From the IMG/VR virus record IMGVR_UViG_2851938318_000001: DNA of 64,000 bases. The stretch is one strand, 5' to 3'. Position 1 is the first letter of the stretch, and each line of letters begins with the position of its first letter. A program made the translations under genes and the position numbers. Shown piece after piece: positions 6,068 to 50,361 of this stretch. The notes under the pieces are model-generated. The model was not told the DNA's origin. It saw only the letters and a program-made list of their open reading frames with translations, and did no database searches. The DNA comes from a virus (taxonomy: Duplodnaviria; Heunggongvirae; Uroviricota; Caudoviricetes).

Positions 6068-6105
6068 TCATTGCGCTAATGGTAAGTATATACTTACCTA
6101 TTGAC

Positions 6106-13095: not shown

Positions 13096-14352
13096 CTATC
13101 GAGAACCACCAAGAATAACACGGTTTTTGACTGGATACCTACGATGTACTGGATAGCCCAATGCGTCTGCACTATGCTCAATGCCACCTGTCTTATCCAT
13201 ATCTCGTGTTCCAGGCTTGTAGATGACCTTTTCCAGTGAATCAATCAAATGCTTGCACTTCGGATCGATATACAGCCGGATATCTCCAGATGCGGTCATC
13301 AGCATTCGGTTAACAGCATTAACACGATCCGCAATTGGCGGGTGCTTTTTCGAATAATCGACACGTAAGAATCCCTTCTCTTTGAATATGTCTACGTCAG
13401 ACTCCCCGCGAGCATGTTGGCGATAAGCACCTGCCGGATCTGGAAATACCGTTATCTGTGATTTCCAGCGCCAGAAGCGCCTCTCAAGCTCATCACAAAC
13501 CTCTGCCGTGTTAGAGGAAAAGAGCACCAATTCATCAATTGCCCATAGCTCACCATTTGGCTGAGGTTGCAAAATTACGGAAGACATCGGGTCAATGTTG
13601 AAGTCCTGTCCTACCCATATAGGCAACCGAGGGTTGAACTGAAGCGGTTTAACATGCACGTTTCGATCGAACGGGTAGTAAACGCGCCCGGACATATTTT
13701 CAAAGCTGGCCAGGTACTCCTGAGCGAACGATTTAGGGTCCATATCGTTCTTAGCAGCTTCAATTTCCGCCGTAGGCACAAACGGCGAATCAGCAGTTAC
13801 AAACTGCCAGCTCTTCCACTGTCCCTTTCTTTGCAGCTCTACGTTCTGGCCTATAGTCCACAGTTTGTGAAATTCCGAGAAGCCTTTTGGCGTACCAATA
13901 ATCAGTGCACCGCCGCGTGTCGATGAAAGAGTAGGTCGTAACACCTTGTACCAGGTGTCAGCCTTCATATCCTGAAATTCATCAAGCACTACAAAATGCA
14001 ACGCTACGCCGCGCAGAGTGTCAGGTTTATCAGCTCCTTTGAGGGCGATCTCCGAACCGTTCTTCAACACGATTGTCATCGTGGTGTCGTTCTTTTTCCT
14101 AACCCACTTACGGGGCAGAACTTCCTGTAGATCGTCCCACAAAATCTGGCGAGCCATCTGGTAAGTAGGAGCGACATACCAGACCCTTTGCTTTTTTTCC
14201 TTTGCCGCCGCACGAATAATAGTGGAGATCGACAACCGGGATTTTCCCCAGCGTCGACCAGCACAAACAACTTTAAATCGATGCGGAGACTGGAAGACTT
14301 TCATCTGTCCAGAATGCAGTTGCACAAGACTGAGCGAGGACGGGATTGCCAT
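13096..14352 (-). CDS. terminase large subunit
   Basis: Walker A CAGRRWGKS, Walker B VVLDEFQD; start overlaps TerS stop. Confidence 0.85.
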   Translation of the reverse strand: MAIPSSLSLVQLHSGQMKVFQSPHRFKVVCAGRRWGKSRLSISTIIRAAAKEKKQRVWYVAPTYQMARQILWDDLQEVLPRKWVRKKNDTTMTIVLKNGSEIALKGADKPDTLRGVALHFVVLDEFQDMKADTWYKVLRPTLSSTRGGALIIGTPKGFSEFHKLWTIGQNVELQRKGQWKSWQFVTADSPFVPTAEIEAAKNDMDPKSFAQEYLASFENMSGRVYYPFDRNVHVKPLQFNPRLPIWVGQDFNIDPMSSVILQPQPNGELWAIDELVLFSSNTAEVCDELERRFWRWKSQITVFPDPAGAYRQHARGESDVDIFKEKGFLRVDYSKKHPPIADRVNAVNRMLMTASGDIRLYIDPKCKHLIDSLEKVIYKPGTRDMDKTGGIEHSADALGYPVHRRYPVKNRVILGGSR

Positions 14353-14984
14353 TATTCGTCCTCCCCTTCACTTCCATCATCTGTCGCATCAAATTCGCTT
14401 AGAGCTTCTTCTTCCAACGTCTCAAGCAATTCGTCATCGATGATTTCAGGCTCGTCGTCTTCCTGACGTAATTTCGCCACCTGGGAAGGCGTAAGCTCAC
14501 CAAATACCAGGTTCGGAATTTCTTCCTCGTCATTTTCCGCATGATCCATGCCCAATGCTTTGGACGAAACTTCAAAGCATTTTGCAAGGGTATTACTGGC
14601 TCTCTGTAAGCTCTTGAGAGAACCCTCAATCGCCCCTAAAGGCTTACCCTCACGTTTGGCCGTAGTGACTTCGACCATCACCATCTGCCCCAACGCATAC
14701 GCCCAGCCGTCATAACGTGTACGACGTTCTTCTATCTTTTCCGCACGGGCTTTAGCGCGAAGCTCTGCGTCAGATTTAAGAGACTCACGAACCATCTTCC
14801 CAACAGAGTCCGCGCCTTTCTCTAATCCTCGCTTTTTGAAATGTCTGGAGAGTGTTTCACGACGAATGCCGTACTCTTCCTCCAGCTTTGAGAGTGTATA
14901 TTCGCCTGACGTCCATTTGGCTTCAGCTTCGGCCCACTCCGCTGGTGTCAGGCGAGTTTTTACCTCGTCTTTTTCGACAGTCAT
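14352..14984 (-). CDS. terminase small subunit (putative)
   Basis: 210 aa with N-terminal HTH-like region and acidic C-terminus, immediately upstream of TerL. Confidence 0.55.
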   Translation of the reverse strand: MTVEKDEVKTRLTPAEWAEAEAKWTSGEYTLSKLEEEYGIRRETLSRHFKKRGLEKGADSVGKMVRESLKSDAELRAKARAEKIEERRTRYDGWAYALGQMVMVEVTTAKREGKPLGAIEGSLKSLQRASNTLAKCFEVSSKALGMDHAENDEEEIPNLVFGELTPSQVAKLRQEDDEPEIIDDELLETLEEEALSEFDATDDGSEGEDE

Positions 14985-15182
14985 AGATCCCTCTAAAACA
15001 CACAGAGCGCGTCCATGCGCTCTAAAACAACTTGTTTACTGCATCTGCTAACCAACTTGTTTTCTGGTGTGTCTAATTAGGTCTGGGCATGTCTTACTAA
15101 GCCTGCTTCTGTATATATATTTAATAAGTTACTTATTATTTATATATACAGAAGCAGGTCTTTAAATAACGTCCCAGACCGA

Positions 15183-15449
15183 TTACATCACCAGTAACTT
15201 CGCTTTGGCTCGACCTAAAGTGGTTAACCCAAGAGTCCGGCGGTGATAGCGATTGTCACTGCGTTGGCGCGTATGCCCTTTCTCCACCAGCCCCTTTTTT
15301 ATCAGAGCGCGAATTGAGAACTGGATACTTTGCTTTGTTGTCTTGTACGGCAAAACTTCAAGCAATTCGTCCAGATCAAGTAGATGACCTCGCTCATAAC
15401 CGAGATTGAGCGTTTTGATGATGTCCTTTTGTTTGTCGGTTAACGTCAT
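15183..15449 (-). CDS. small winged-helix DNA-binding protein (putative)
   Basis: 88 aa basic protein; first gene after an overlapping four-gene operon. Confidence 0.35.
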   Translation of the reverse strand: MTLTDKQKDIIKTLNLGYERGHLLDLDELLEVLPYKTTKQSIQFSIRALIKKGLVEKGHTRQRSDNRYHRRTLGLTTLGRAKAKLLVM

Positions 15450-15458
15450 GGCAAATCC

Positions 15459-16349
15459 TTATGCCGGTAAAGCAATTTCTAACGGTTTATCCAAAGGTTG
15501 TTTGTCGAATGCCAGCAGTGGCAGCGTGTCAGGCAGTCGACGACCAAAGTCAGGGTTTCGATACACACCATACAACGGAGACGTAAAGCTCAGGTTGTGA
15601 ATGTCCTTGAGCAGCTTCACAATGCTGGCCTCGTCCACCAGACTGTCGGCAATGTCCTGAATCGTCGTGCCACGATTCCGCCCAGCTTTTGCCAGGGAAC
15701 TGTTCTTGTGGTAGTCCGCCACCAGATCACGCAGTGCACGGCGACGACGTGACTCGCTCATTGCGAACAACTCTTTGACGATCGCCTCGTTATCACCCGG
15801 GTCGGAGCGGAAATGGCGCTGGAACACACGCAGTGCACTTTCATAGCTCTTCGGTCGCTCAGGGCGGATGAACTTGAACCCTGCTTTCATGGCGAAGGGA
15901 TTGTATTTGCTCATCGAGGATTGGATCTCAATGATTGGCCGGTCATGCATCCTGCTAACCAGGTTAATCATTCGATAAGAGACGCCTACGCCACGGTACT
16001 GAGTATCCACAACTGAGCGGCTGATCACCGCAAAGTTGTTATTCACGTACCGGCCCCAGTACTGGTTAGCCACGGTGGTATTGGTGGTTGGTTTCAACTT
16101 AGGAAACATGCGATGGCGAGGTGCCAGCAGAAGTTTCGGGTAAGCCATAACCACGACGCCCACCAGACGGTCATCCAGTTCGCAGCGATAGTATGTTGGC
16201 GCGAAAGGTTTGCCGTCTGTTTTGTAGTGAAGCGACTTAAGAGCGTGCCAGTCCTCTACAGTTCCCTTTGTGACAGTCATTCGCTCCAGAAAGTCCAGAT
16301 GACGCGGAAACTCTTCAGGGCGGTAGCGTTTAATGATGATGTCCGTCAT
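15459..16349 (-). CDS. GNAT-like acyltransferase domain protein (putative)
   Basis: motif VVDTQYRGVGVSYRMINLV resembles GNAT motif A (R/Q-x-x-G-x-G/A). Confidence 0.35.
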   Translation of the reverse strand: MTDIIIKRYRPEEFPRHLDFLERMTVTKGTVEDWHALKSLHYKTDGKPFAPTYYRCELDDRLVGVVVMAYPKLLLAPRHRMFPKLKPTTNTTVANQYWGRYVNNNFAVISRSVVDTQYRGVGVSYRMINLVSRMHDRPIIEIQSSMSKYNPFAMKAGFKFIRPERPKSYESALRVFQRHFRSDPGDNEAIVKELFAMSESRRRRALRDLVADYHKNSSLAKAGRNRGTTIQDIADSLVDEASIVKLLKDIHNLSFTSPLYGVYRNPDFGRRLPDTLPLLAFDKQPLDKPLEIALPA

Positions 16350-17011
16350 GAATGGACCTCATCATAACTACCATTGTGATATTCCACCTTCACGCGTTCT
16401 TTGTAGTGCTTGGTGATCTGCATATCCGGGCGCAGCGCGTTCTTCAGGTCTTCGTGAGTCGTCGCCACCATTACCGTCGCACCAACCTTTCGAGCGGCAC
16501 GCTGGAGGTTAGATGCCACAACCTGAGCGGTTACACGGTCTAGAACAGCACCGAACTCGTCAGCAGCCCACACTTTAGCGCCTGACTCAATCAGTTTGGC
16601 AATCTTGAGACGATATTTCTGACCGTCTGACATTTCAGAAGGCTTGCGAACAAACAGATATGCATCGTTCAGACCAGCCATAGATAACAACCCAAGCGCA
16701 TCGCTGGTCGTTTTGCCCAACTGATCGATGACGTTAACCTCATTATCGAAGGTAAAATCATCGATGGAGGCTACAGACAGCCCTTCATCCTTCATCTGGC
16801 GTTGCAGCTCGCGCAACACAACGGATTTACCTGAACCGGATTGGCCGGTGATGTACACCACATCGCCCTGCTTCACTTCCAGCTCCAGATTGTCGTAAAG
16901 CGTCCACTCTTTTTCGTCCAGGCCAAGCCCGAACGACTCAGCGATTTCCAACGTGCGCGTGGTTTTATTTACGCGTGTCTGAAACGATACGTTGATGATG
17001 TATTTACTCAT
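16346..17011 (-). CDS. ABC-type ATPase (soluble)
   Basis: Walker A GQSGSGKS, signature-like SDGQKYRL, Walker B VWAADEFGA, H-loop TTHEDL. Confidence 0.55.
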   Translation of the reverse strand: MSKYIINVSFQTRVNKTTRTLEIAESFGLGLDEKEWTLYDNLELEVKQGDVVYITGQSGSGKSVVLRELQRQMKDEGLSVASIDDFTFDNEVNVIDQLGKTTSDALGLLSMAGLNDAYLFVRKPSEMSDGQKYRLKIAKLIESGAKVWAADEFGAVLDRVTAQVVASNLQRAARKVGATVMVATTHEDLKNALRPDMQITKHYKERVKVEYHNGSYDEVHS

Positions 17012-17709
17012 GCAGCCATCTCCCCGGAAGAGATCTTCTCCGCATATGCCACAAATGCGTCTACCCCGCTTTCTCCCGTCATTTCTTCCATATGGGCAAG
17101 CAAATCACCAACAACAATGGCAGAGCCAGCAGGGAGCGTTTTAAAGCCCAATACGTCGACAACACGTACTTCTTCCGCTGCAACTTCACGACTGATCTCG
17201 GTGTGTTCATCCTTCTGTCGTTTAGTTTCTTCGCCAAGATCGATAACTAGCGAGTCGGTGTCCATTTCTTCTGTCATACTGCCAACGAGAACATTCAACT
17301 CACGCTCTTCAAAGCCGAAAACCTCGATATCGTCCAGAACAAGCGACTCAAGCTCTTTCTGTAGCTTAATTGCATCGTAATCAATGCTGGCAAGTCGGTT
17401 ATCTTCAAGGCGCTTCGCACGAACCTCGTCATCACTGAGATCATCGCGAACAATAACCGGTACGCGCTCAAGTCCAGCAAAAATTGCAGCCTCACGGCGG
17501 CCGTGGCCAGTAATAATTACGTCGTTCTTATCGACCGTAATTGGCTGGTCAAATCCGCGCTTTTTAATGGCTGCGGCCAGATCTCGGATCTGCTGTTCAT
17601 CATGCTTTTTGGCATTCATCTCATAGGGAATAAGATCTGCCGGGTCGCGATATACGATTTCAAACTTTTTGGTCATTACATACGCTCCTTGTAGTAGTCG
17701 ACCAGCCAC
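17008..17709 (-). CDS. ParB-like nuclease domain protein
   Basis: ParB/Srx motif ITGHGRREAA; 4-bp overlap with downstream ATPase gene. Confidence 0.55.
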   Translation of the reverse strand: MAGRLLQGAYVMTKKFEIVYRDPADLIPYEMNAKKHDEQQIRDLAAAIKKRGFDQPITVDKNDVIITGHGRREAAIFAGLERVPVIVRDDLSDDEVRAKRLEDNRLASIDYDAIKLQKELESLVLDDIEVFGFEERELNVLVGSMTEEMDTDSLVIDLGEETKRQKDEHTEISREVAAEEVRVVDVLGFKTLPAGSAIVVGDLLAHMEEMTGESGVDAFVAYAEKISSGEMAA

Positions 17710-18374
17710 ACCAGAGCCTCACCAGCGTTCTCCATTTCATTACCGGTGTTAATAGCCTGCTCTTTGATGATGTTTTTTATGGTTTCTGCAACACGATCTG
17801 ACGCATCGAAAGTTACTTTGAAGCGCATGGTCTGATGTTCCGCCCCCACACGTTCGGTTTTCTCTCGTTTGTCGGTATCGACAGGCTCATCACTACCACG
17901 AGACAACGCCTCCAGTGCTTCAAGGTCGATTGCCGCCTCTTTTGCTAAAACCATCGAGATTTCGTCGTCATACGGGGCGATTTCAGACAGTTGATAGTCA
18001 AGTTCTGACTGAATTTCTTCAATGAAGCGTTGCAATGCGATTTGGTCGTCTTCACCGTATCGCTCGTTGTCCACCAGTGACATCTGTTTAGCTACGACAT
18101 CGCTAATTTTGCCCACAGAAAGCACCGGAACCGTTGAAATTCCTTGCTCAATAGCAGCACGCCAGCGATGTTCGCCGCCGAGGATTTCAAAAAATCCATC
18201 TTCAAGTTCACGAGCCAAAATTGGCTTAAAAAAGCCCAATTTTTCGATAGAACCTTTCAGTTTTTCAAAATTCTGCGCACCAACCGAATTGGTGTTCCAG
18301 GTATTCGGGCGAAGGTTGGCAACATCAACCTGCAAAATCGTGATTTTTACATCCATTTTATTGCTACAATCCAC
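17676..18374 (-). CDS. ParB-like nuclease domain protein
   Basis: ParB box ILGGEHRWRAA; ORF-track start is GTG at 18374, internal ATG at 18356. Confidence 0.55.
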   Translation of the reverse strand: MDCSNKMDVKITILQVDVANLRPNTWNTNSVGAQNFEKLKGSIEKLGFFKPILARELEDGFFEILGGEHRWRAAIEQGISTVPVLSVGKISDVVAKQMSLVDNERYGEDDQIALQRFIEEIQSELDYQLSEIAPYDDEISMVLAKEAAIDLEALEALSRGSDEPVDTDKREKTERVGAEHQTMRFKVTFDASDRVAETIKNIIKEQAINTGNEMENAGEALVWLVDYYKERM

Positions 18375-18438
18375 TAAGTAATTACTTACTTATTATAATA
18401 GCCAAATAACATACAAAAGGCACTAAGGAAAGAGGTTT

Positions 18439-19998
18439 ATGACTGTTCGGATTGTATCTAACGCAGTAAATGCGCTTATTTCTGGCGCAGATGACAAGGT
18501 AAAGCAACTGGTGCAGCAAATGTTGAGCTACGAAGTCGAGACTGGCGACTGGAAGGGCACAAGCACGATGTTCAACTGGAGTAAAAACTCGTTCCCTGCT
18601 GGCTTTGCCAAGCCTGTAGCAGCGAACTTGAACAAGGCGGGCATCAAATGTGTTCATATCCGCAAAGACAAAGCCCCGGCGCTTGGTAAACCAAATCCGG
18701 CGGTTAACCCATTCCCATACAATCCTGATTATGCGTATCAGGATCAGACTGTGGAAACACTGGTTCGAGAGGGAATGATGATTGCGCAGATCGCTACTGG
18801 TGGCGGGAAATCTAATGTTGCCTGCAAAGCAGCTGCACGTATCGGTCGAATGACATTATTTTTAACAACCCGCTCTGTTCTGATGTTTCAGATGGCCGAA
18901 AACTTCCAGAGATCCATCGACTACCGCGCCGAAAATGGCGAACCGTGGTTAAAAGACCAAAAGGTTGGAGTAATTGGCTCGGGTGAGTTCCAGGTATCAC
19001 GACATATCAACGTCGCTACAGTTCAAACTCTTGCAAGTTTCCTTGAAGAACCACCACGCGATGCAACTCCAGATAAGAAAAGCTACCACCTCAAACGTCG
19101 GGAGTTGGTGAAACGCTTCCTTTCAAGTGTCTCTCTTCTTATTCTGGAAGAGGCGCATGAGTCTTCAGGCTCTAATTTCTATGACATTGCCAGATTATGT
19201 GCGAACGCAGACTATCGCCTGGCGCTTACGGCAACGCCGTTCATGAAGGATTCTACGGAAGCCAACATGCGTCTGATGGCTGTAGCCGGGCGAATTGAAA
19301 TAAAAGTCACGGAAAAGTACCTGATTGATAGAGGAATTCTGGCAAAGCCATACTTCCTTTATCATAAAGTTGCCTACAAACCGGACGAGGTCAGAATCAA
19401 GGCAGAACTTGCTAACAAACACCTCAATTTTAGAGTAGGTATGAGCACTGCCTACCAAAAGGCTTATCAGTTGGGGATCGTGTATAATTTGGGACGTAAC
19501 GAGGCCATTGTGCGCGAAGCATTGCTCTATAAGCAACACTCTCTCAACTGCATGACTCTGGTTCGTCTTAAACGCCACGGGCAAATCCTGATGGAGATGA
19601 TGAAGGAGTCCGGTCTTAGAGTTGACTTCATCTATGGGGAATCGAACCAGGCGACAAGGCAAGCAAAGCTGAACAGTTTAGCGTCTGGTGAAATAGATGT
19701 TTTAATAGGCTCGACTATTCTGGATGTCGGTGTTGATGTGCCAAGCGTTGGTGCGGTCATTCTTGCTGGTGGCGGGAAAGCAGAAGTTGAAATGAGACAA
19801 CGTGTCGGTCGTGGCTTACGAGCCAAGAAGAATCAGGCAAACGTGTGTTTTATCACTGATTTCATTGACATTAGCAACAAATACCTGTTGTCTCACTCTT
19901 ATGAGCGAAAACACATCATCGACACTACACCTGGCTTTGCAGAAGGTGTATTGCCAATTGATGGCACATTCGATTTTGGAGTTCTGAAACGAGATTAG
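18439..19998 (+). CDS. superfamily-2 helicase (DEAD/SNF2-like)
   Basis: motif I IATGGGKS, motif II LILEEAH, motif VI QRVGRGLRA. Confidence 0.75.
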   Translation: MTVRIVSNAVNALISGADDKVKQLVQQMLSYEVETGDWKGTSTMFNWSKNSFPAGFAKPVAANLNKAGIKCVHIRKDKAPALGKPNPAVNPFPYNPDYAYQDQTVETLVREGMMIAQIATGGGKSNVACKAAARIGRMTLFLTTRSVLMFQMAENFQRSIDYRAENGEPWLKDQKVGVIGSGEFQVSRHINVATVQTLASFLEEPPRDATPDKKSYHLKRRELVKRFLSSVSLLILEEAHESSGSNFYDIARLCANADYRLALTATPFMKDSTEANMRLMAVAGRIEIKVTEKYLIDRGILAKPYFLYHKVAYKPDEVRIKAELANKHLNFRVGMSTAYQKAYQLGIVYNLGRNEAIVREALLYKQHSLNCMTLVRLKRHGQILMEMMKESGLRVDFIYGESNQATRQAKLNSLASGEIDVLIGSTILDVGVDVPSVGAVILAGGGKAEVEMRQRVGRGLRAKKNQANVCFITDFIDISNKYLLSHSYERKHIIDTTPGFAEGVLPIDGTFDFGVLKRD

Positions 19999-30843: not shown

Positions 30844-32877
30844 TTACTTAACCTGGTGGCCAGGTTTAGCACCAGCATCCGGGCTTAACAGGAAGATATC
30901 TTTCCCGCCGGGGCCAGCAGCCATCACCATGCCTTCAGAGATACCGAAGCGCATTTTACGTGGTGCCAGGTTAGCCACCATAATGGTGTGACGACCAATC
31001 AGTGCCTGTGGATCTGGATAAGCGGAACGGATGCCTGAGAAGACATTACGCTTTTCACCACCGAGATCCAGCGTCAGGCGAAGCAGTTTGTCAGAACCTT
31101 CTACAAACTCTGCGTTTTCAATCAGCGCCACGCGCAGGTCAACTTTGGCGAAGTCGTCAAAGGTGATAGTTTCCTGAATCGGGTCGTCAGCCAGTGGGCC
31201 AGTTACCGGTGCGGCTGTGGCTTTCACTTCTTCTTTGGATGCTTCCACCAGTGCTTCAACCTGCTTCATATCGATGCGGTTATACAGTGCCTTGAACGGA
31301 TTCACTTTATGGCCCAGCAGCGGTTGCTGGATACCATCCCAGGTCAGTTCTGTATTCAGGAATGCTTCTGCACGTTCAGTCAGTTTCGGCAGTACCGGCT
31401 TCAGGTACGTCATCAGCACGCGGAACAGGTTAATGCCCATAGAGCAAATCGCCTGCAGATCGGCATCGCGTCCTTCCTGCTTCGCCACCACCCACGGAGC
31501 CTGTTCATCGACATAGCGGTTAGCCAGGTCAGCCAATGCCATGATTTCACGGATAGCTTTACCAAATTCGCGGCTTTCCCACGCTTCACCAATCACTTCA
31601 GCGGCATCAGTGAAGGTTTTGTACAACTGCGGGTCAGCCAATTCGCTTGCCAGCACGCCGTCAAAACGCTTGTTGATAAAGCCCGCATTACGAGAGGCCA
31701 GGTTAACCACTTTGTTCACGATATCGGCATTCACGCGCTGAACGAAATCCTCCAGGTTGAGATCGATATCATCAATGCGCGAAGAGAGTTTCGCAGTGTA
31801 GTAGTAACGCAGGCTGTCGGCGTCAAAATGATTCAGCCAGGTGCTGGCTTTAATAAAGGTGCCGCGAGACTTGGACATCTTCGCGCCGTTCACCGTCACA
31901 TAGCCGTGAACAAACAGGTTGGTCGGCTTGCGGAAGTTGCTGCCTTCCAGCATGGCAGGCCAGAACAGGCTGTGGAAGTAAACAATATCTTTACCGATGA
32001 AGTGGTACAGCTCGGCGGTGGAGTCTTTCTTCCAGTATTCATCGAAGCTGGAGGTGTCGCCGCGTTTGTCGCACAGATTCTTGAAGGAACCCATGTAGCC
32101 AATCGGCGCGTCCAGCCAGACGTAGAAATATTTGCCCGGTGCGTTCGGAATTTCAAAACCGAAGTACGGCGCATCGCGGGAGATATCCCACTGTTGCAGA
32201 CCAGATTCAAACCACTCCTGCATTTTGTTTGCCACCTGCTCCTGCAACGCACCGCTGCGGGTCCATGCCTGCAACATTTCGCTGAAAGAAGGCAGATCAA
32301 AGAAGAAGTGTTCGGAATCACGCATTACCGGCGTAGCACCAGAAACTACCGATTTCGGCTCGATCAGTTCAGTAGGGCTGTATGTCGCGCCGCAGACTTC
32401 ACAGTTATCGCCGTATTGATCCGGCGCTTTACATTTCGGGCATGTGCCTTTCACAAAACGGTCCGGCAGGAACATGCCTTTTTCCGGGTCGTACAGCTGA
32501 GAGATGGTGCGGTTTTTAATAAAACCGTTCTCTTTCAGGCGAGTATAGATAAGCTCGGACAACTGACGGTTCTCTTCGCTGTGCGTCGAGTGATAGTTGT
32601 CATAGCTGATGTTAAAGCCTGCAAAATCAGTCTGGTGTTCCTGACTCATTTCGCCAATCATCTGTTCCGGTGTGATACCAAGCTGCTGTGCTTTCAGCAT
32701 GATCGGTGTGCCGTGGGCATCGTCGGCACAGATGAAATTAACCTCGTGGCCGCGCATTCGCTGGTAACGAACCCAGACATCAGCCTGGATGTGCTCCAGC
32801 ATATGGCCGAGGTGGATTGAGCCGTTAGCGTACGGCAGCGCGCACGTCACCAGAATTTTCTTCGCGACTTGGGTCAT
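30844..32877 (-). CDS. metG: methionyl-tRNA synthetase (E. coli chromosomal type)
   Basis: protein from [31 protein letters not shown]... with KMSKS motif, recognised as E. coli MetRS; ORF-track start 33006 is upstream extension. Confidence 0.95.
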
Positions 32878-33034: not shown

Positions 33035-34135
33035 ATGAGCGAGTCCAAATCGCCGGATGCCCTGAGAGCAATGGTAGCCGGTACGCTGGCTAATTTTCAG
33101 CACCCAACCCTGAAACACAATCTGACTACGCTTAAAGCGTTACACCATGTTGCGTTGATGGATGACACACTGCATGTCGAACTAATCATGCCTTTCGTGT
33201 GGAATAAGCCTTTTGAAGACCTGAAAGAGCAATGTAGTGGTGATCTGCTCCGTATCACTGGCGCAAAGGCTATTGACTGGAAGCTGTCGTACAACATTGC
33301 CACGCTTAAGCGCGTCAAAAACCAACCAGGCATTAATGGCGTGAAGAACATTATCGCCGTCAGCTCAGGCAAGGGCGGCGTTGGTAAATCCTCCACGGCG
33401 GTAAACCTGGCACTGGCGTTGGCTGCTGAAGGTGCGAAAGTTGGTATTTTGGATGCCGATATCTACGGGCCATCAATTCCAACCATGCTTGGCGCGGAAA
33501 ACCAACGTCCAACCTCACCGGACGGTACTCACATGGCACCGATTATGTCTCATGGACTGGCAACCAATTCAATTGGTTATCTGGTAACTGACGACAATGC
33601 GATGGTGTGGCGTGGTCCGATGGCGAGCAAGGCGTTAATGCAGATGTTGCAGGAAACTCTATGGCCTGATCTGGACTATCTCGTTCTCGATATGCCGCCG
33701 GGTACTGGTGATATTCAGCTGACGCTGGCGCAGAACATTCCTGTAACTGGTGCTGTTGTGGTAACTACGCCGCAAGATATCGCGCTGATCGATGCGAAGA
33801 AAGGCATTGTGATGTTCGAAAAAGTCGAAGTGCCGGTACTGGGTATCGTCGAAAACATGAGTGTGCATATTTGCAGTAACTGCGGTCATCACGAGCCAAT
33901 TTTTGGCACCGGTGGCGCACAGAAGCTGGCCGAGAAATACAACACGCAGTTGTTAGGCCAAATGCCACTTCATATCTCTCTTCGTGAAGATCTGGATAAC
34001 GGAACACCAACCGTTATTAGTCGTCCAGATAGCGAATTTACGGCTATTTATCGTGACCTCGCAGATCGCGTTGCTGCCCAAATGTATTGGCAAGGTGAAG
34101 TAATACCTGGCGAAATCGCATTCCGCGCAGTGTGA
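33035..34135 (+). CDS. apbC: Fe-S cluster carrier ATPase ApbC/Mrp (E. coli chromosomal type)
   Basis: P-loop AVSSGKGGVGKSS and CxxC (CSNCGH); divergent from metG as in the E. coli chromosome. Confidence 0.93.
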   Translation: MSESKSPDALRAMVAGTLANFQHPTLKHNLTTLKALHHVALMDDTLHVELIMPFVWNKPFEDLKEQCSGDLLRITGAKAIDWKLSYNIATLKRVKNQPGINGVKNIIAVSSGKGGVGKSSTAVNLALALAAEGAKVGILDADIYGPSIPTMLGAENQRPTSPDGTHMAPIMSHGLATNSIGYLVTDDNAMVWRGPMASKALMQMLQETLWPDLDYLVLDMPPGTGDIQLTLAQNIPVTGAVVVTTPQDIALIDAKKGIVMFEKVEVPVLGIVENMSVHICSNCGHHEPIFGTGGAQKLAEKYNTQLLGQMPLHISLREDLDNGTPTVISRPDSEFTAIYRDLADRVAAQMYWQGEVIPGEIAFRAV

Positions 34136-46155: not shown

Positions 46156-46316
46156 AAAATCGATTTTAAAGCGTCTGGGAAGGGGTTCTAGTGGATTCTG
46201 TAGTGATGTTCAGGTCTGGAGTCTCTGATACAAAACAGCCTGCTTCCGTATATTAATAATTAATATGTAGTTATTTATATATACAGAAGCAGGCTAATTA
46301 CAGACGCCAGAACAAA

Positions 46317-46910
46317 CTAAGCAGCCTTCTTTGATGGTCTTTTTTTCCTGATCACATTCGCAGGATCATACCCTCCCAGACTTTTCATGACGTCCAAAGG
46401 GATCTTGCTTATAGAGTGCCCAGCGTCCTGACAGAATCCTCGAAAAACAACGAGCATACTGCCACCTGGGTTGATGTTTACTTCTACCTGACCCAGATTG
46501 ACGTCAGGCTCGACAAACGCTACGCGGCCACCAGACAGAATAATCGTCTCATTCGCACACTCTGTTGCACGCTCATACCACTTTGTATCTAGGGATTGAG
46601 GAATTAGCATCACTGTTGTAACTCCGCGAGCCTGCTCACGTATAGCCGCATCAATCCAGGGGGAGATTTTGGAGTAGGGTGGATTGAGGAAGGCAATTGT
46701 ACCTGGCTGTCCCCATTCAGATTTCAAAGCATCACGCTCAACGCCTATGAAATTAGGCAGCTTTGCATTGTCCTTGTTGCAGGCAACGTCAACATCAAAT
46801 GTCACTCCAAGATAACGTTGAATGGCAGAAAACAGCCAGTCAGGTGTTCTCCAGAGGTCACGAAGAGAGTTGTCGCGCTTTCGCTGTTTGATTTTTTCGG
46901 CTGCAATCAT
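46317..46910 (-). CDS. phage Dam-type DNA N6-adenine methyltransferase
   Basis: FLNPPYS motif, about 200 aa. Confidence 0.7.
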   Translation of the reverse strand: MIAAEKIKQRKRDNSLRDLWRTPDWLFSAIQRYLGVTFDVDVACNKDNAKLPNFIGVERDALKSEWGQPGTIAFLNPPYSKISPWIDAAIREQARGVTTVMLIPQSLDTKWYERATECANETIILSGGRVAFVEPDVNLGQVEVNINPGGSMLVVFRGFCQDAGHSISKIPLDVMKSLGGYDPANVIRKKRPSKKAA

Positions 46911-49516: not shown

Positions 49517-49839
49517 TTTTTCCAGAGGCGGTCGAACTCCGCCTTCGCAAAATAAGCGGAAGCCTGGCGAAGGATATCGTTACTGCGGCGCAGTTCACGA
49601 TTTTCACGTTCCAGCTCTTTCAGACGCTGACGTTCAGCGCTGGTGAGCCCACCATCACCGCCCCCGGTATCCCGCTCATGCTGGCGAACCCAGACACGCA
49701 GAGTCTCCGGCGTACAGCCAATCTTTGGGGCAATGGAACAAATTGCCGCCCACTGTGAGTCATATTCATCCTGACTTTCCAGAACCATACGAATCGCCCG
49801 CTGACGGACTTCGGGGGAAAAACGAGTATTTTTAGTCAT
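49513..49839 (-). CDS. IS629-type transposase OrfA
   Basis: [31 protein letters not shown]... recognised as IS629/IS3411 OrfA. Confidence 0.9.
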
Positions 49840-49941
49840 CCTGTTTACCTCTTTCTCAGGGAGTTTAGTCTCCAGGATTTCCGGGGCGGTTCACGTAGAC
49901 TCGATATCGATGCCTGCAACAATCGTTGTCATCAGAACTCC

Positions 49942-50361
49942 TTACAACTTCTTAGCGCCCTTAAGTAGTGCGCTACGTACAAATTGAGCCGCTTTTTTCA
50001 AAGTTTCTTCACTGGTTTCACAGACAATCGGATCTTTCCACTTACCTGACACAGTGTTGAGAATATTGATTTGGTTGCTATCCAGACAAACAGAGATATA
50101 AAGCACCGTGCCACCAGCCAGCATCAAATGCATAGGAAACAGAGGCTTTTTACTGCCTTCACTGAACTGAGACATGGCGATGTTAATGGCTTCACCCACT
50201 TGTGTACCAACAAGCCCCTGCGCAGTTTCGAATATGGCACGAATAGCCAGACGAGCCTCTCGATCGCTCATAAGCGACCGGGAATGTTCGTCCGCTACAC
50301 GAATCAAAGCCTCTGTTGTTTTCCGATCCAGTTCATCTTCAAGCAACATTTCACTAAACAT
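49942..50361 (-). CDS. hypothetical protein
   Basis: 139 aa ORF ending 10 bp before exonuclease start. Confidence 0.4.
   Translation of the reverse strand: MFSEMLLEDELDRKTTEALIRVADEHSRSLMSDREARLAIRAIFETAQGLVGTQVGEAINIAMSQFSEGSKKPLFPMHLMLAGGTVLYISVCLDSNQINILNTVSGKWKDPIVCETSEETLKKAAQFVRSALLKGAKKL

Follow-up and report, generated by a model that had tools for sequence, protein, structure and literature searches.

What does a five-gene operon encoding two ParB-like proteins, a soluble ABC-type ATPase, a GNAT-fold protein, and a small winged helix-turn-helix (wHTH) protein do in a phage that carries it right next to the terminase? The question is raised by positions 15183-18374 of a 64,000-nt stretch of caudoviral DNA (IMG/VR record IMGVR_UViG_2851938318_000001), which we call the window. 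An earlier note, made from the sequence alone, had described the operon as adjoining the terminase and divergent from a superfamily-2 (SF2) helicase, did not recognize the combination of genes, and offered DNA modification, packaging initiation, or anti-defense as functions. We found the open reading frames (ORFs) where the note had placed them, and its domain assignments held, with weak support in the case of the wHTH protein. We tentatively read the operon, at a little under an even chance, as a nucleic-acid modification module linked to packaging. With its split enzyme and its ParB pair, it adds a new member to a kind of phage DNA-modification system that is known only from computational prediction. 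The combination is therefore less novel than the note had supposed, since an ABC ATPase with a GNAT has already been published as a predicted DNA-nucleobase acylation system, with Tenacibaculum phage pT24 as an example (PMC7824862), and ParB-terminase (ParB-Tls) loci have been published as packaging-coupled loci predicted to modify DNA during packaging (PMC4738411). Among the functions offered in the note, DNA modification combined with packaging is the one favored by the comparative evidence and by these predictions. Both predictions are from Aravind's group. Iyer et al. 2013 (NAR 41:7635), as cited by Iyer et al. 2021, is reportedly the original source of the ABC-GNAT acylation prediction.

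The five ORFs are co-directional on the minus strand and fill the interval in the order ParB-like 1 (ParB1), ParB-like 2 (ParB2), ABC ATPase, GNAT, and wHTH. The junctions between ParB2 and ABC and between ABC and GNAT are both ATGA, with 4-nt overlaps, which agrees with the overlaps of at least 4 bp claimed previously; the claim does not extend to ParB1 and ParB2, which share a single nucleotide in TAATG (34 nt only when counted from a GTG upstream of the ParB2 start). The GNAT and wHTH genes are separated by a 9-nt gap, and a Shine-Dalgarno-like purine run is found at each junction of the operon. The longest ORF of ParB1 spans 17676-18374 from a GTG, while the RefSeq start is the ATG at 18356. 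Since a strong PHROG family matches each of the five genes (E 1e-45 to 1e-165) and their order is kept in every relative examined, the operon is real and not a chance arrangement.

The element that carries this operon is an SSU5-type phage-plasmid. This follows from the identities of the 5.7-kb region around the operon, which is 100% identical to the Escherichia coli plasmid pRM9131-1, 98% identical to Escherichia phages Cyrano, PhiR41_1, and CMS-2020a, 83% identical to Salmonella phage SSU5, and ~80% identical to Klebsiella phage-plasmids. It also follows from the location of the region in E. coli, where we found it in 249 of 5426 complete genomes (~4.6%), plasmid-borne every time.

The evidence for an enzymatic function comes from the ABC and GNAT genes. 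The ATPase is an ABC-type nucleotide-binding domain (NBD) without membrane domain, in which all catalytic motifs are intact: Walker A (G56-S63, G56QSGSGKS), the Q-loop (Q97), the signature (M127SDGQ), Walker B (D151-E152), and the H-loop (H186). The GNAT-fold protein, encoded beside it, has a core that covers roughly residues 20-165 and, behind this core, a conserved C-terminal domain of ~130 aa. Two of its motifs are invariant, R119xxG122 in the β4-α3 loop and NPFAxKAGF, and their retention in the sequence is consistent with an active, cofactor-binding transferase. When we searched 1.8 billion representative proteins with a profile of the GNAT, we retrieved 898 homologues, many of them 450-500 aa long. 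In these long homologues the GNAT region is C-terminal and an ABC ATPase is N-terminal, i.e., the two are in the same order as the genes of the window. Along its entire length, the window ABC shares 49% identity with the ABC halves of the homologue P0184 and of P0205, a fusion with a family-B DNA polymerase (PolB). The JGI and GenBank labels on the homologues read 'ABC-type ATPase with/fused to a predicted acetyltransferase domain (MK0520)'. Because of these fused homologues (a Rosetta stone), their domain order, and the ABC identity, the comparison shows that the window ABC and GNAT form one enzyme in two parts, the split counterpart of a fused ABC-GNAT protein that is widespread.

The link to the published example is transitive only: the fused homologue P0184 matches the 'ABC transporter ATP-binding' gene of pT24 (31% identity, E 8e-14), and the window ABC alone had no pT24 match at E 1e-10. 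We found no match of the GNAT to the Mom family in Pfam or PHROGs, so that the likeness to Mom is at the level of the fold only. A triple ParB-ABC-GNAT fusion was considered and rejected, as none of the 10 long homologues examined has a ParB domain. One ABC-GNAT homologue, P0166, has its ABC domain broken by an intein with a LAGLIDADG endonuclease.

The fused enzyme occurs in other genomic settings. P0205 is a 1260-aa PolB-ABC-GNAT fusion (L012/L013, 8001-11783) found in more than 24 metagenomic phage contigs, where its neighbors are PrimPol, RecA, and 5'-3' exonuclease genes. An SPbeta-like element has the fused ABC-GNAT in a replication module, between DnaB/DHH and gyrase genes, and in one prophage the start of the fused gene overlaps the stop of the gene for the terminase large subunit (TerL). 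Genes 1-4 of Gordonia phage BiggityBass (L127, 1-4196) encode a ParB-like protein, an ABC-GNAT fusion, a formyltransferase, and the terminase, and Streptococcus prophage Javan511 (L128, 3986-7808) encodes ParB_N, ABC, an ASCH-domain protein, DUF5681, and TerL. Because of these five contexts, we conclude that ABC-GNAT is repeatedly and independently tied to DNA synthesis, to ParB-superfamily proteins, and to the terminase. The N4-acylcytosine amidohydrolase YqfB has the ASCH fold (PMC6972931), and the presence of an ASCH domain beside ParB, ABC, and terminase genes in Streptococcus prophages gives a weak hint of N4-acyl-cytosine chemistry.

The two ParB-like proteins both align to the nucleoside triphosphate (NTP)-binding N-terminal domain of Spo0J/ParB/Noc. 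They are paralogues, with 33% identity in this domain and different box-II variants (GGEHRWRAA in ParB1, GHGRREAA in ParB2). ParB1 consists of the ParB/Srx N-terminal domain, an acidic middle, and a conserved C-terminal domain of roughly 55 aa. ParB2 is closest to ParB domains fused to phage DNA methyltransferases: it matches the N-terminal regions of phrog_498 'DNA methyltransferase' (E 2e-31) and of the PADLOC model MTase_II (E 3e-17). Both proteins are acidic throughout, with isoelectric points (pI) of 4.55 for ParB1 and 4.53 for ParB2, and the middle region of ~50-60 aa, where a canonical ParB has its basic helix-turn-helix (HTH) domain, has a pI of ~4.1 (4.05 in ParB1). The Pfam scan matched ParB_N and no HTH family in either protein, and the score against TIGR00180 (43 bits) is below the curated cut-off (58 bits). 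An AlphaFold2 model of ParB1 built from a shallow alignment of 7 sequences had a pLDDT of 39. A ribbon-helix-helix domain at the ParB1 C-terminus, proposed from a β-α-α pattern, was dropped because PDB and Pfam profile searches were empty and the segment is acidic.

Proteins of this kind have been described beside other enzymes. According to a 2025 preprint, the thymine dioxygenases of one phage clade (5mYOX clade E) show activity in E. coli only when a neighboring ParB-like protein is produced along with them; this protein has nucleotide-binding and C-terminal domains and lacks a DNA-binding domain (bioRxiv 10.1101/2025.08.14.668559). The Pfam and PHROG scans found no TET/JBP domain in the operon, where the partner is the ABC-GNAT enzyme. 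As far as the sequences tell, the window pair fits the architecture of the dioxygenase-associated ParBs and a model in which the enzyme binds the DNA and the ParB is an NTP-gated dimerizing partner. The opposite charge is found in two further proteins of the operon, the GNAT (pI 9.8) and the wHTH protein (pI 10.2), which are basic. The family profile of the latter matches the MarR-family regulator ST1710 (E 0.002) and NCBIfam Sta1/Lrs14 (E 0.003), both weakly.

To what extent is this arrangement kept in relatives? We compared 32 loci, made up of distant homologue contigs, named phages, and 26 loci from a scan of one genome per GTDB species, with orthologues called by iterative annotation with hidden Markov models. 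The loci span phages, phage-plasmids, and prophages of Gamma- and Alphaproteobacteria. In all 32, and within the extent of each contig, nine genes from the helicase to the portal have identical order and orientation. The wHTH gene is always present and after the GNAT gene, and the SF2 helicase is adjacent and divergent in every locus that reaches that far. ParB-superfamily genes are near the terminase and co-directional with it, with the putative modifying enzyme between them, in the window as in the 32 loci. Distant GNAT homologues (~45% identity) are on a metagenome-assembled contig of 3.3 Mb, on a contig of an Ectothiorhodospira genome, and on one from Tara Oceans; these contigs read helicase (on the opposite strand), ParB, ParB, ABC, small inserts in places, GNAT, a small protein, a gap, then a protein like the terminase small subunit (TerS), TerL, and portal. 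The order is also kept in Pseudomonas phage nickie, Rhizobium phage RHph_N1_15, and Stenotrophomonas phage BUCTxx99. The loci from the GTDB scan, many of them on contigs of ~100-118 kb, include Yersinia pestis, Xenorhabdus, Morganella, Photobacterium, Sphingomonas, Paracoccus, and Magnetospirillum. This diversity came from genome contigs, the phage collection, and contig look-ups, while a scan of viral contigs with the GNAT alignment gave only near-identical loci. The earlier note had held that a lack of synteny in relatives, or the assignment of the genes to a well-known packaging or partition cassette, would speak against a separate module. The gene order is strictly kept, and the profile searches gave no assignment to a characterized cassette of either type.

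In the distant loci, the median identity to the window proteins is 56% for ABC, 57% for TerL, 50% for the portal, 43% for GNAT, 42% for the helicase, 39% for ParB2, 37% for ParB1, and 32% for TerS. The conservation of the ABC ATPase thus equals that of TerL. Among isolated phages, a TerL with at least 53% identity and the GNAT are found in exactly the same 31 records, and the next tier of TerL (at most 45% identity) lacks the GNAT. The module is also present in the nickie relative psageB1, for which no temperate behavior has been observed. It is further carried by contigs of megabase size and by one complete chromosome, probably as part of an integrated prophage. Hence, the module is a universal and slowly evolving core of an ancient lineage of siphoviruses and phage-plasmids of roughly 105-120 kb that includes SSU5, nickie, RHEph10, and their relatives. 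As a separate observation, the gaps between ParB2 and ABC and between ABC and GNAT serve in relatives as slots into which small accessory genes are inserted (e.g., RHph_N1_15, L095 4402-5992; L004 8961-9999; SSU5, L008 4812-5066). The slots hold a DUF2829 protein, Phage_gp49_66, a RyR-domain protein, or unnamed ORFs of 84-124 aa, and have no insert in the window.

How might such a module work? Two GNAT-fold enzymes provide precedents, namely Mom of phage Mu, which acylates adenine in double-stranded DNA (dsDNA) from Gly-tRNA, and TmcA, an ATP-dependent GNAT that acts on cytidine N4 (PMC13219725). Extrapolating from established families, ATP-driven dimerization of the ABC heads would place the basic GNAT subunits on phage DNA, the GNAT would transfer an acyl group, and the ParBs would dimerize under the control of NTP. 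By analogy, the substrate would be the exocyclic amine of a base. The donor may be an acyl-CoA, which we prefer because the R-x-x-G loop is retained, or else an aminoacyl-tRNA as in Mom, and the need for ATP would parallel that of the cytidine acetyltransferase TmcA. The acidic ParBs, apparently devoid of a DNA-binding HTH, might be an NTP-gated and probably heterodimeric activator or clamp of the enzyme, as suggested by the partners of the clade-E phage thymine dioxygenases. A sequence-specific role, as DNA binder or regulator, would fall more likely to the wHTH protein than to the ParBs. Because the operon is immediately upstream of TerS and TerL, its expression may be late, again by analogy, and its target the replicated or packaged phage DNA. 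A more specific version is doubtful in our eyes: that an acyl mark never described chemically in DNA (e.g., N4-acyl-deoxycytidine or N6-acyl-deoxyadenosine) is written on SSU5-type DNA during replication or packaging, under a heterodimeric NTP-gated ParB switch, and is indispensable to the lineage instead of being an optional anti-restriction accessory.

Several observations weigh against a role in modification. The universality of the module (31 of 31 phages) and the TerL-like conservation of its ABC ATPase are what one would sooner expect of an essential factor in replication or packaging. Anti-restriction modification is usually patchy in distribution. The closest sequence kin of the ABC ATPase are transporter-type NBDs and not the ABC proteins that act on DNA, and the SSU5 cassette has no reader, eraser, or nuclease partner. 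Within the literature that could be searched, we found no report of a non-canonical base in virion DNA of the SSU5 type, of DNA modification or restriction resistance in SSU5, nickie, RHEph10, or ANB28, or of experimental work on the ABC-GNAT system. Finally, the GNAT fold reveals neither substrate nor donor (PMC13219725).

A purely mechanical role in packaging is a serious rival, even if we rate it as unlikely. Under this explanation, the operon would be an accessory of packaging or genome-end processing without base modification, in which ParB-like NTPases (or nickases) and the ABC protein help TerS and TerL to recognize, cut, and load concatemers, and the GNAT fold is a DNA- or terminase-binding or regulatory subunit. 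The HNH protein encoded beside cos and the terminase in HK97-like phages has a comparable role. A position directly upstream of TerS/TerL that is fixed in 32 of 32 loci is what such an accessory would predict, as are the presence of the module in 31 of 31 phages of the lineage with an ABC conserved like TerL, the overlap of ABC-GNAT with TerL in an unrelated prophage, the ParB and ABC genes upstream of the terminase in Gordonia and Streptococcus phages, and a conserved dyad element between the operon and TerS. It accounts less well for the ABC-GNAT genes that are far from any terminase, in replication modules and PolB fusions, for the invariance of the GNAT cofactor-binding motifs, which argues for catalysis, and for the ParB-Tls loci elsewhere that carry bona fide DNA-modifying enzymes. 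Another rival is an ATP-dependent acylation that has a protein or an RNA as its target, in host takeover or anti-defense; the candidates are tRNA of the host or of the phage, RNA polymerase, ribosomal proteins, and a defense protein of the host. Phage GNATs such as Rac do modify the host RNA polymerase (PMC7824862), TmcA is an ATPase-GNAT that acts on tRNA, the phage-plasmids carry tRNA genes and metG, and the variable slots of the operon hold accessory genes such as DUF2829. Nevertheless, the fusion to a family-B DNA polymerase and the repeated linkage to ParB-superfamily proteins and the terminase point to DNA, and a universal, slowly evolving core is unlike the fast-evolving genes of anti-defense. 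We thus see a protein or RNA target as a still slimmer prospect than the mechanical role.

The ParB-like pair invites two other explanations. It might regulate the transcription of the late or structural operon as a ParB-CTP clamp, in the manner of KorB, with the ATPase and GNAT as unrelated passengers. The intact NTP-binding N-terminal domains, the palindromes at both ends of the operon, and the presence of a wHTH protein would suit such a regulator, but the ParBs are acidic throughout and show no basic HTH domain, ParB2, ABC, and GNAT are coupled by 4-nt ATGA overlaps, and ABC-GNAT recurs with ParB in unrelated phages, all of which makes this explanation highly improbable. Last, two ParB-family genes, both named as partition proteins by database labels, might form a partition system by which the prophage persists as a plasmid, and Pfeifer et al. 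assign the duplicated ParB genes in related phage-plasmids to partition. Yet the operon has no ParA, its genes are embedded in the packaging module, the ParBs are acidic and show no HTH DNA-binding domain, and the cassette is found in virulent phages (the nickie genus) and in probable integrated prophages. We regard partition as very unlikely, the least probable of the explanations, in agreement with the note, which had seen no standard partition system here. A ParA-type ATPase gene (MipZ/AAA_31/CbiA), followed by a gene for a 117-aa protein, is found ~31 kb away on the same plasmid, outside the window (pRM9131-1 91089-92116; L010 15090-16117). It is likely the true partition locus of the phage-plasmid, separate from the ParB-like pair.

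If the module does modify DNA as predicted, a common family of enterobacterial phage-plasmids carries an undescribed DNA modification. Its hosts include the ~4.6% of complete E. coli genomes mentioned above, and also Klebsiella, Salmonella, and Yersinia pestis with its pMT1-like plasmids, and such elements often carry resistance genes. An emerging view of ParB-like NTP switches, as activators of DNA-modifying enzymes, would then gain a further case. The module is compact, with 4-5 genes, and is present in cultivable and genetically tractable phages (SSU5, Cyrano, nickie), which makes a thirteen-year-old computational prediction directly testable. If the modification reading fails, the universal conservation points to an unrecognized essential factor of packaging or replication.

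The coordinates of the operon and of its neighbors are given in Table 1. Downstream of the operon, on the same strand, are the genes for the TerS-like protein, TerL, and the portal. The stop of the TerS-like gene overlaps the start of TerL, and its orthologue in phage Cyrano is labeled as terminase small subunit. On the other side, the operon is separated from the divergent SF2 helicase by an 82-bp gap. The helicase is an invariant neighbor, and nothing observed here marks it as a functional part of the module.

Table 1. Features of the operon and of the adjoining region, with positions in the window.
Feature	Coordinates	Strand	Details
ParB-like 1	17676..18356	-	226 aa from ATG; Pfam ParB_N E 3e-13; phrog_723 E 2e-79
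ParB-like 2	17008..17676	-	222 aa from ATG; Pfam ParB_N E 1e-8; phrog_930 E 1e-112
Soluble ABC-type ATPase	16346..17011	-	221 aa; ABC_tran E 6e-13
GNAT-fold acyltransferase-like protein	15459..16349	-	296 aa; basic, pI 9.8
Small basic protein, probably MarR-like winged helix	15183..15449	-	88 aa, pI 10.2; phrog_900 E 2e-45
Imperfect palindrome, ~100 bp	15080..15180	.	inner 18-bp arms CCTGCTTCTGTATATATA; between the wHTH and TerS genes
TerS-like DNA-binding protein	14352..14984	-	210 aa, acidic C-terminus; phrog_867 E 8e-100
Terminase large subunit (TerL)	13096..14352	-	Terminase_6N E 3e-9; phrog_2/10250
UvsW-like SF2 helicase	18439..19998	+	ResIII/DEAD/Helicase_C; divergent from ParB1

The palindrome in Table 1 is one of three copies of a composite element of ~100 bp in the phage-plasmid, with inner 18-bp arms CCTGCTTCYGTATATATA and outer arms TCTGG..CCAGA. 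The inner arms were seen 4 times in the window, for 0.01 matches expected by chance. Copy 1 follows the wHTH gene; copy 2 (~46215-46315) is just downstream of an ORF for a phage N6-adenine methyltransferase (46317-46910); and copy 3, outside the window, is in a divergent intergenic region (pRM9131-1 93048-93102; L010 17049-17103), ~0.9 kb from the ParA-type partition gene. In SSU5 the symmetry of the palindrome is kept by a compensatory T>C/A>G change, and distant relatives have unrelated dyad elements at the position of copy 1. The element is possibly a terminator, a binding site for a protein or regulator, a loading site, or a genome end. The records of SSU5 (NC_018843, position 1) and Cyrano (OV696614, end) begin and end within copy 1, at window position ~15121, ~9 bp off its center, and the genome contigs L109 and L114 of relatives end shortly after the wHTH gene. 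Behind this may be a physical end of the genome, a hairpin at which the assembly broke, or a convention. We dropped the idea that copy 1 is a cos site, because other records of the lineage start elsewhere and record starts are often arbitrary; it is also weakened by the occurrence of the same palindrome at two further sites of the plasmid. Besides these copies, there are perfect 14-bp palindromes, none of which is expected in shuffled sequences: TAAGTAATTACTTA at 18375-18388, in the 82-bp promoter region between helicase and ParB1, and TAAGTATATACTTA at 6083-6096. They may be operator sites.

By colinearity with pRM9131-1, the element has a full methionyl-tRNA synthetase gene (metG), apbC, and a dihydrofolate reductase gene at window positions 30844-32877, 33035-34135, and ~49754-50230. 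The last of these genes is of phage type, is named trimethoprim-resistant DfrA51 in RefSeq, and adjoins a thymidylate synthase gene. A tRNA cluster is found on the same plasmid, outside the window.

How does the module compare with known systems? With ParABS it has in common the NTP-binding domain of the ParB superfamily, and it lacks ParA, the HTH domain, and a demonstrated parS. Menshen, which consists of ParB-DUF262, an ABC ATPase, and a nuclease (PMC12065111), shows the same pairing of a ParB domain with an ABC ATPase, whereas the window module has no nuclease effector, is phage-encoded, and is linked to packaging. Membership in a catalogued defense system was rejected, as the note had surmised: the models of PADLOC 2.0 (including Septu, PARIS, Menshen, Dnd, and Dpd) gave only generic P-loop and ParB-domain matches, and none for the GNAT. 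TmcA/NAT10 have a common logic with the window enzyme, i.e., an ATPase coupled to a GNAT that acylates a poorly nucleophilic base amine; in contrast, their ATPase is of helicase type and not of ABC type, their substrate is RNA, and the homology is limited to the GNAT fold. Mom (PDB 8bv8) shares the phage GNAT fold, is the best viral structural neighbor of the window GNAT, and sets the precedent for a late-expressed acylation of an exocyclic amine in dsDNA. Unlike the window enzyme, it acts alone, with Gly-tRNA and with neither ATPase nor ParB, whereas the window GNAT keeps the R-x-x-G loop and has another C-terminal domain.

The ParB-Tls loci and the clade-E dioxygenases have one or more ParB genes upstream of the terminase together with a nucleic-acid-modifying enzyme, and a ParB made of an NTP-binding N-terminal domain and a C-terminal domain without HTH, an architecture that the window ParBs would have as well, judging by their sequence. 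They differ in the enzyme, which is a TET/JBP dioxygenase or a methyltransferase in place of ABC-GNAT, and in having one ParB where the window has two paralogues. The ABC-GNAT acylation system (COG2401, MK0520-like) has both domains in the same order, with 49% ABC identity between the window protein and fused forms. The window enzyme is instead split into two translationally coupled genes, two ParB paralogues and a wHTH protein are encoded along with it, and its module is the universal core of a lineage, whereas the published form is a sporadic gene of jumbo phages.

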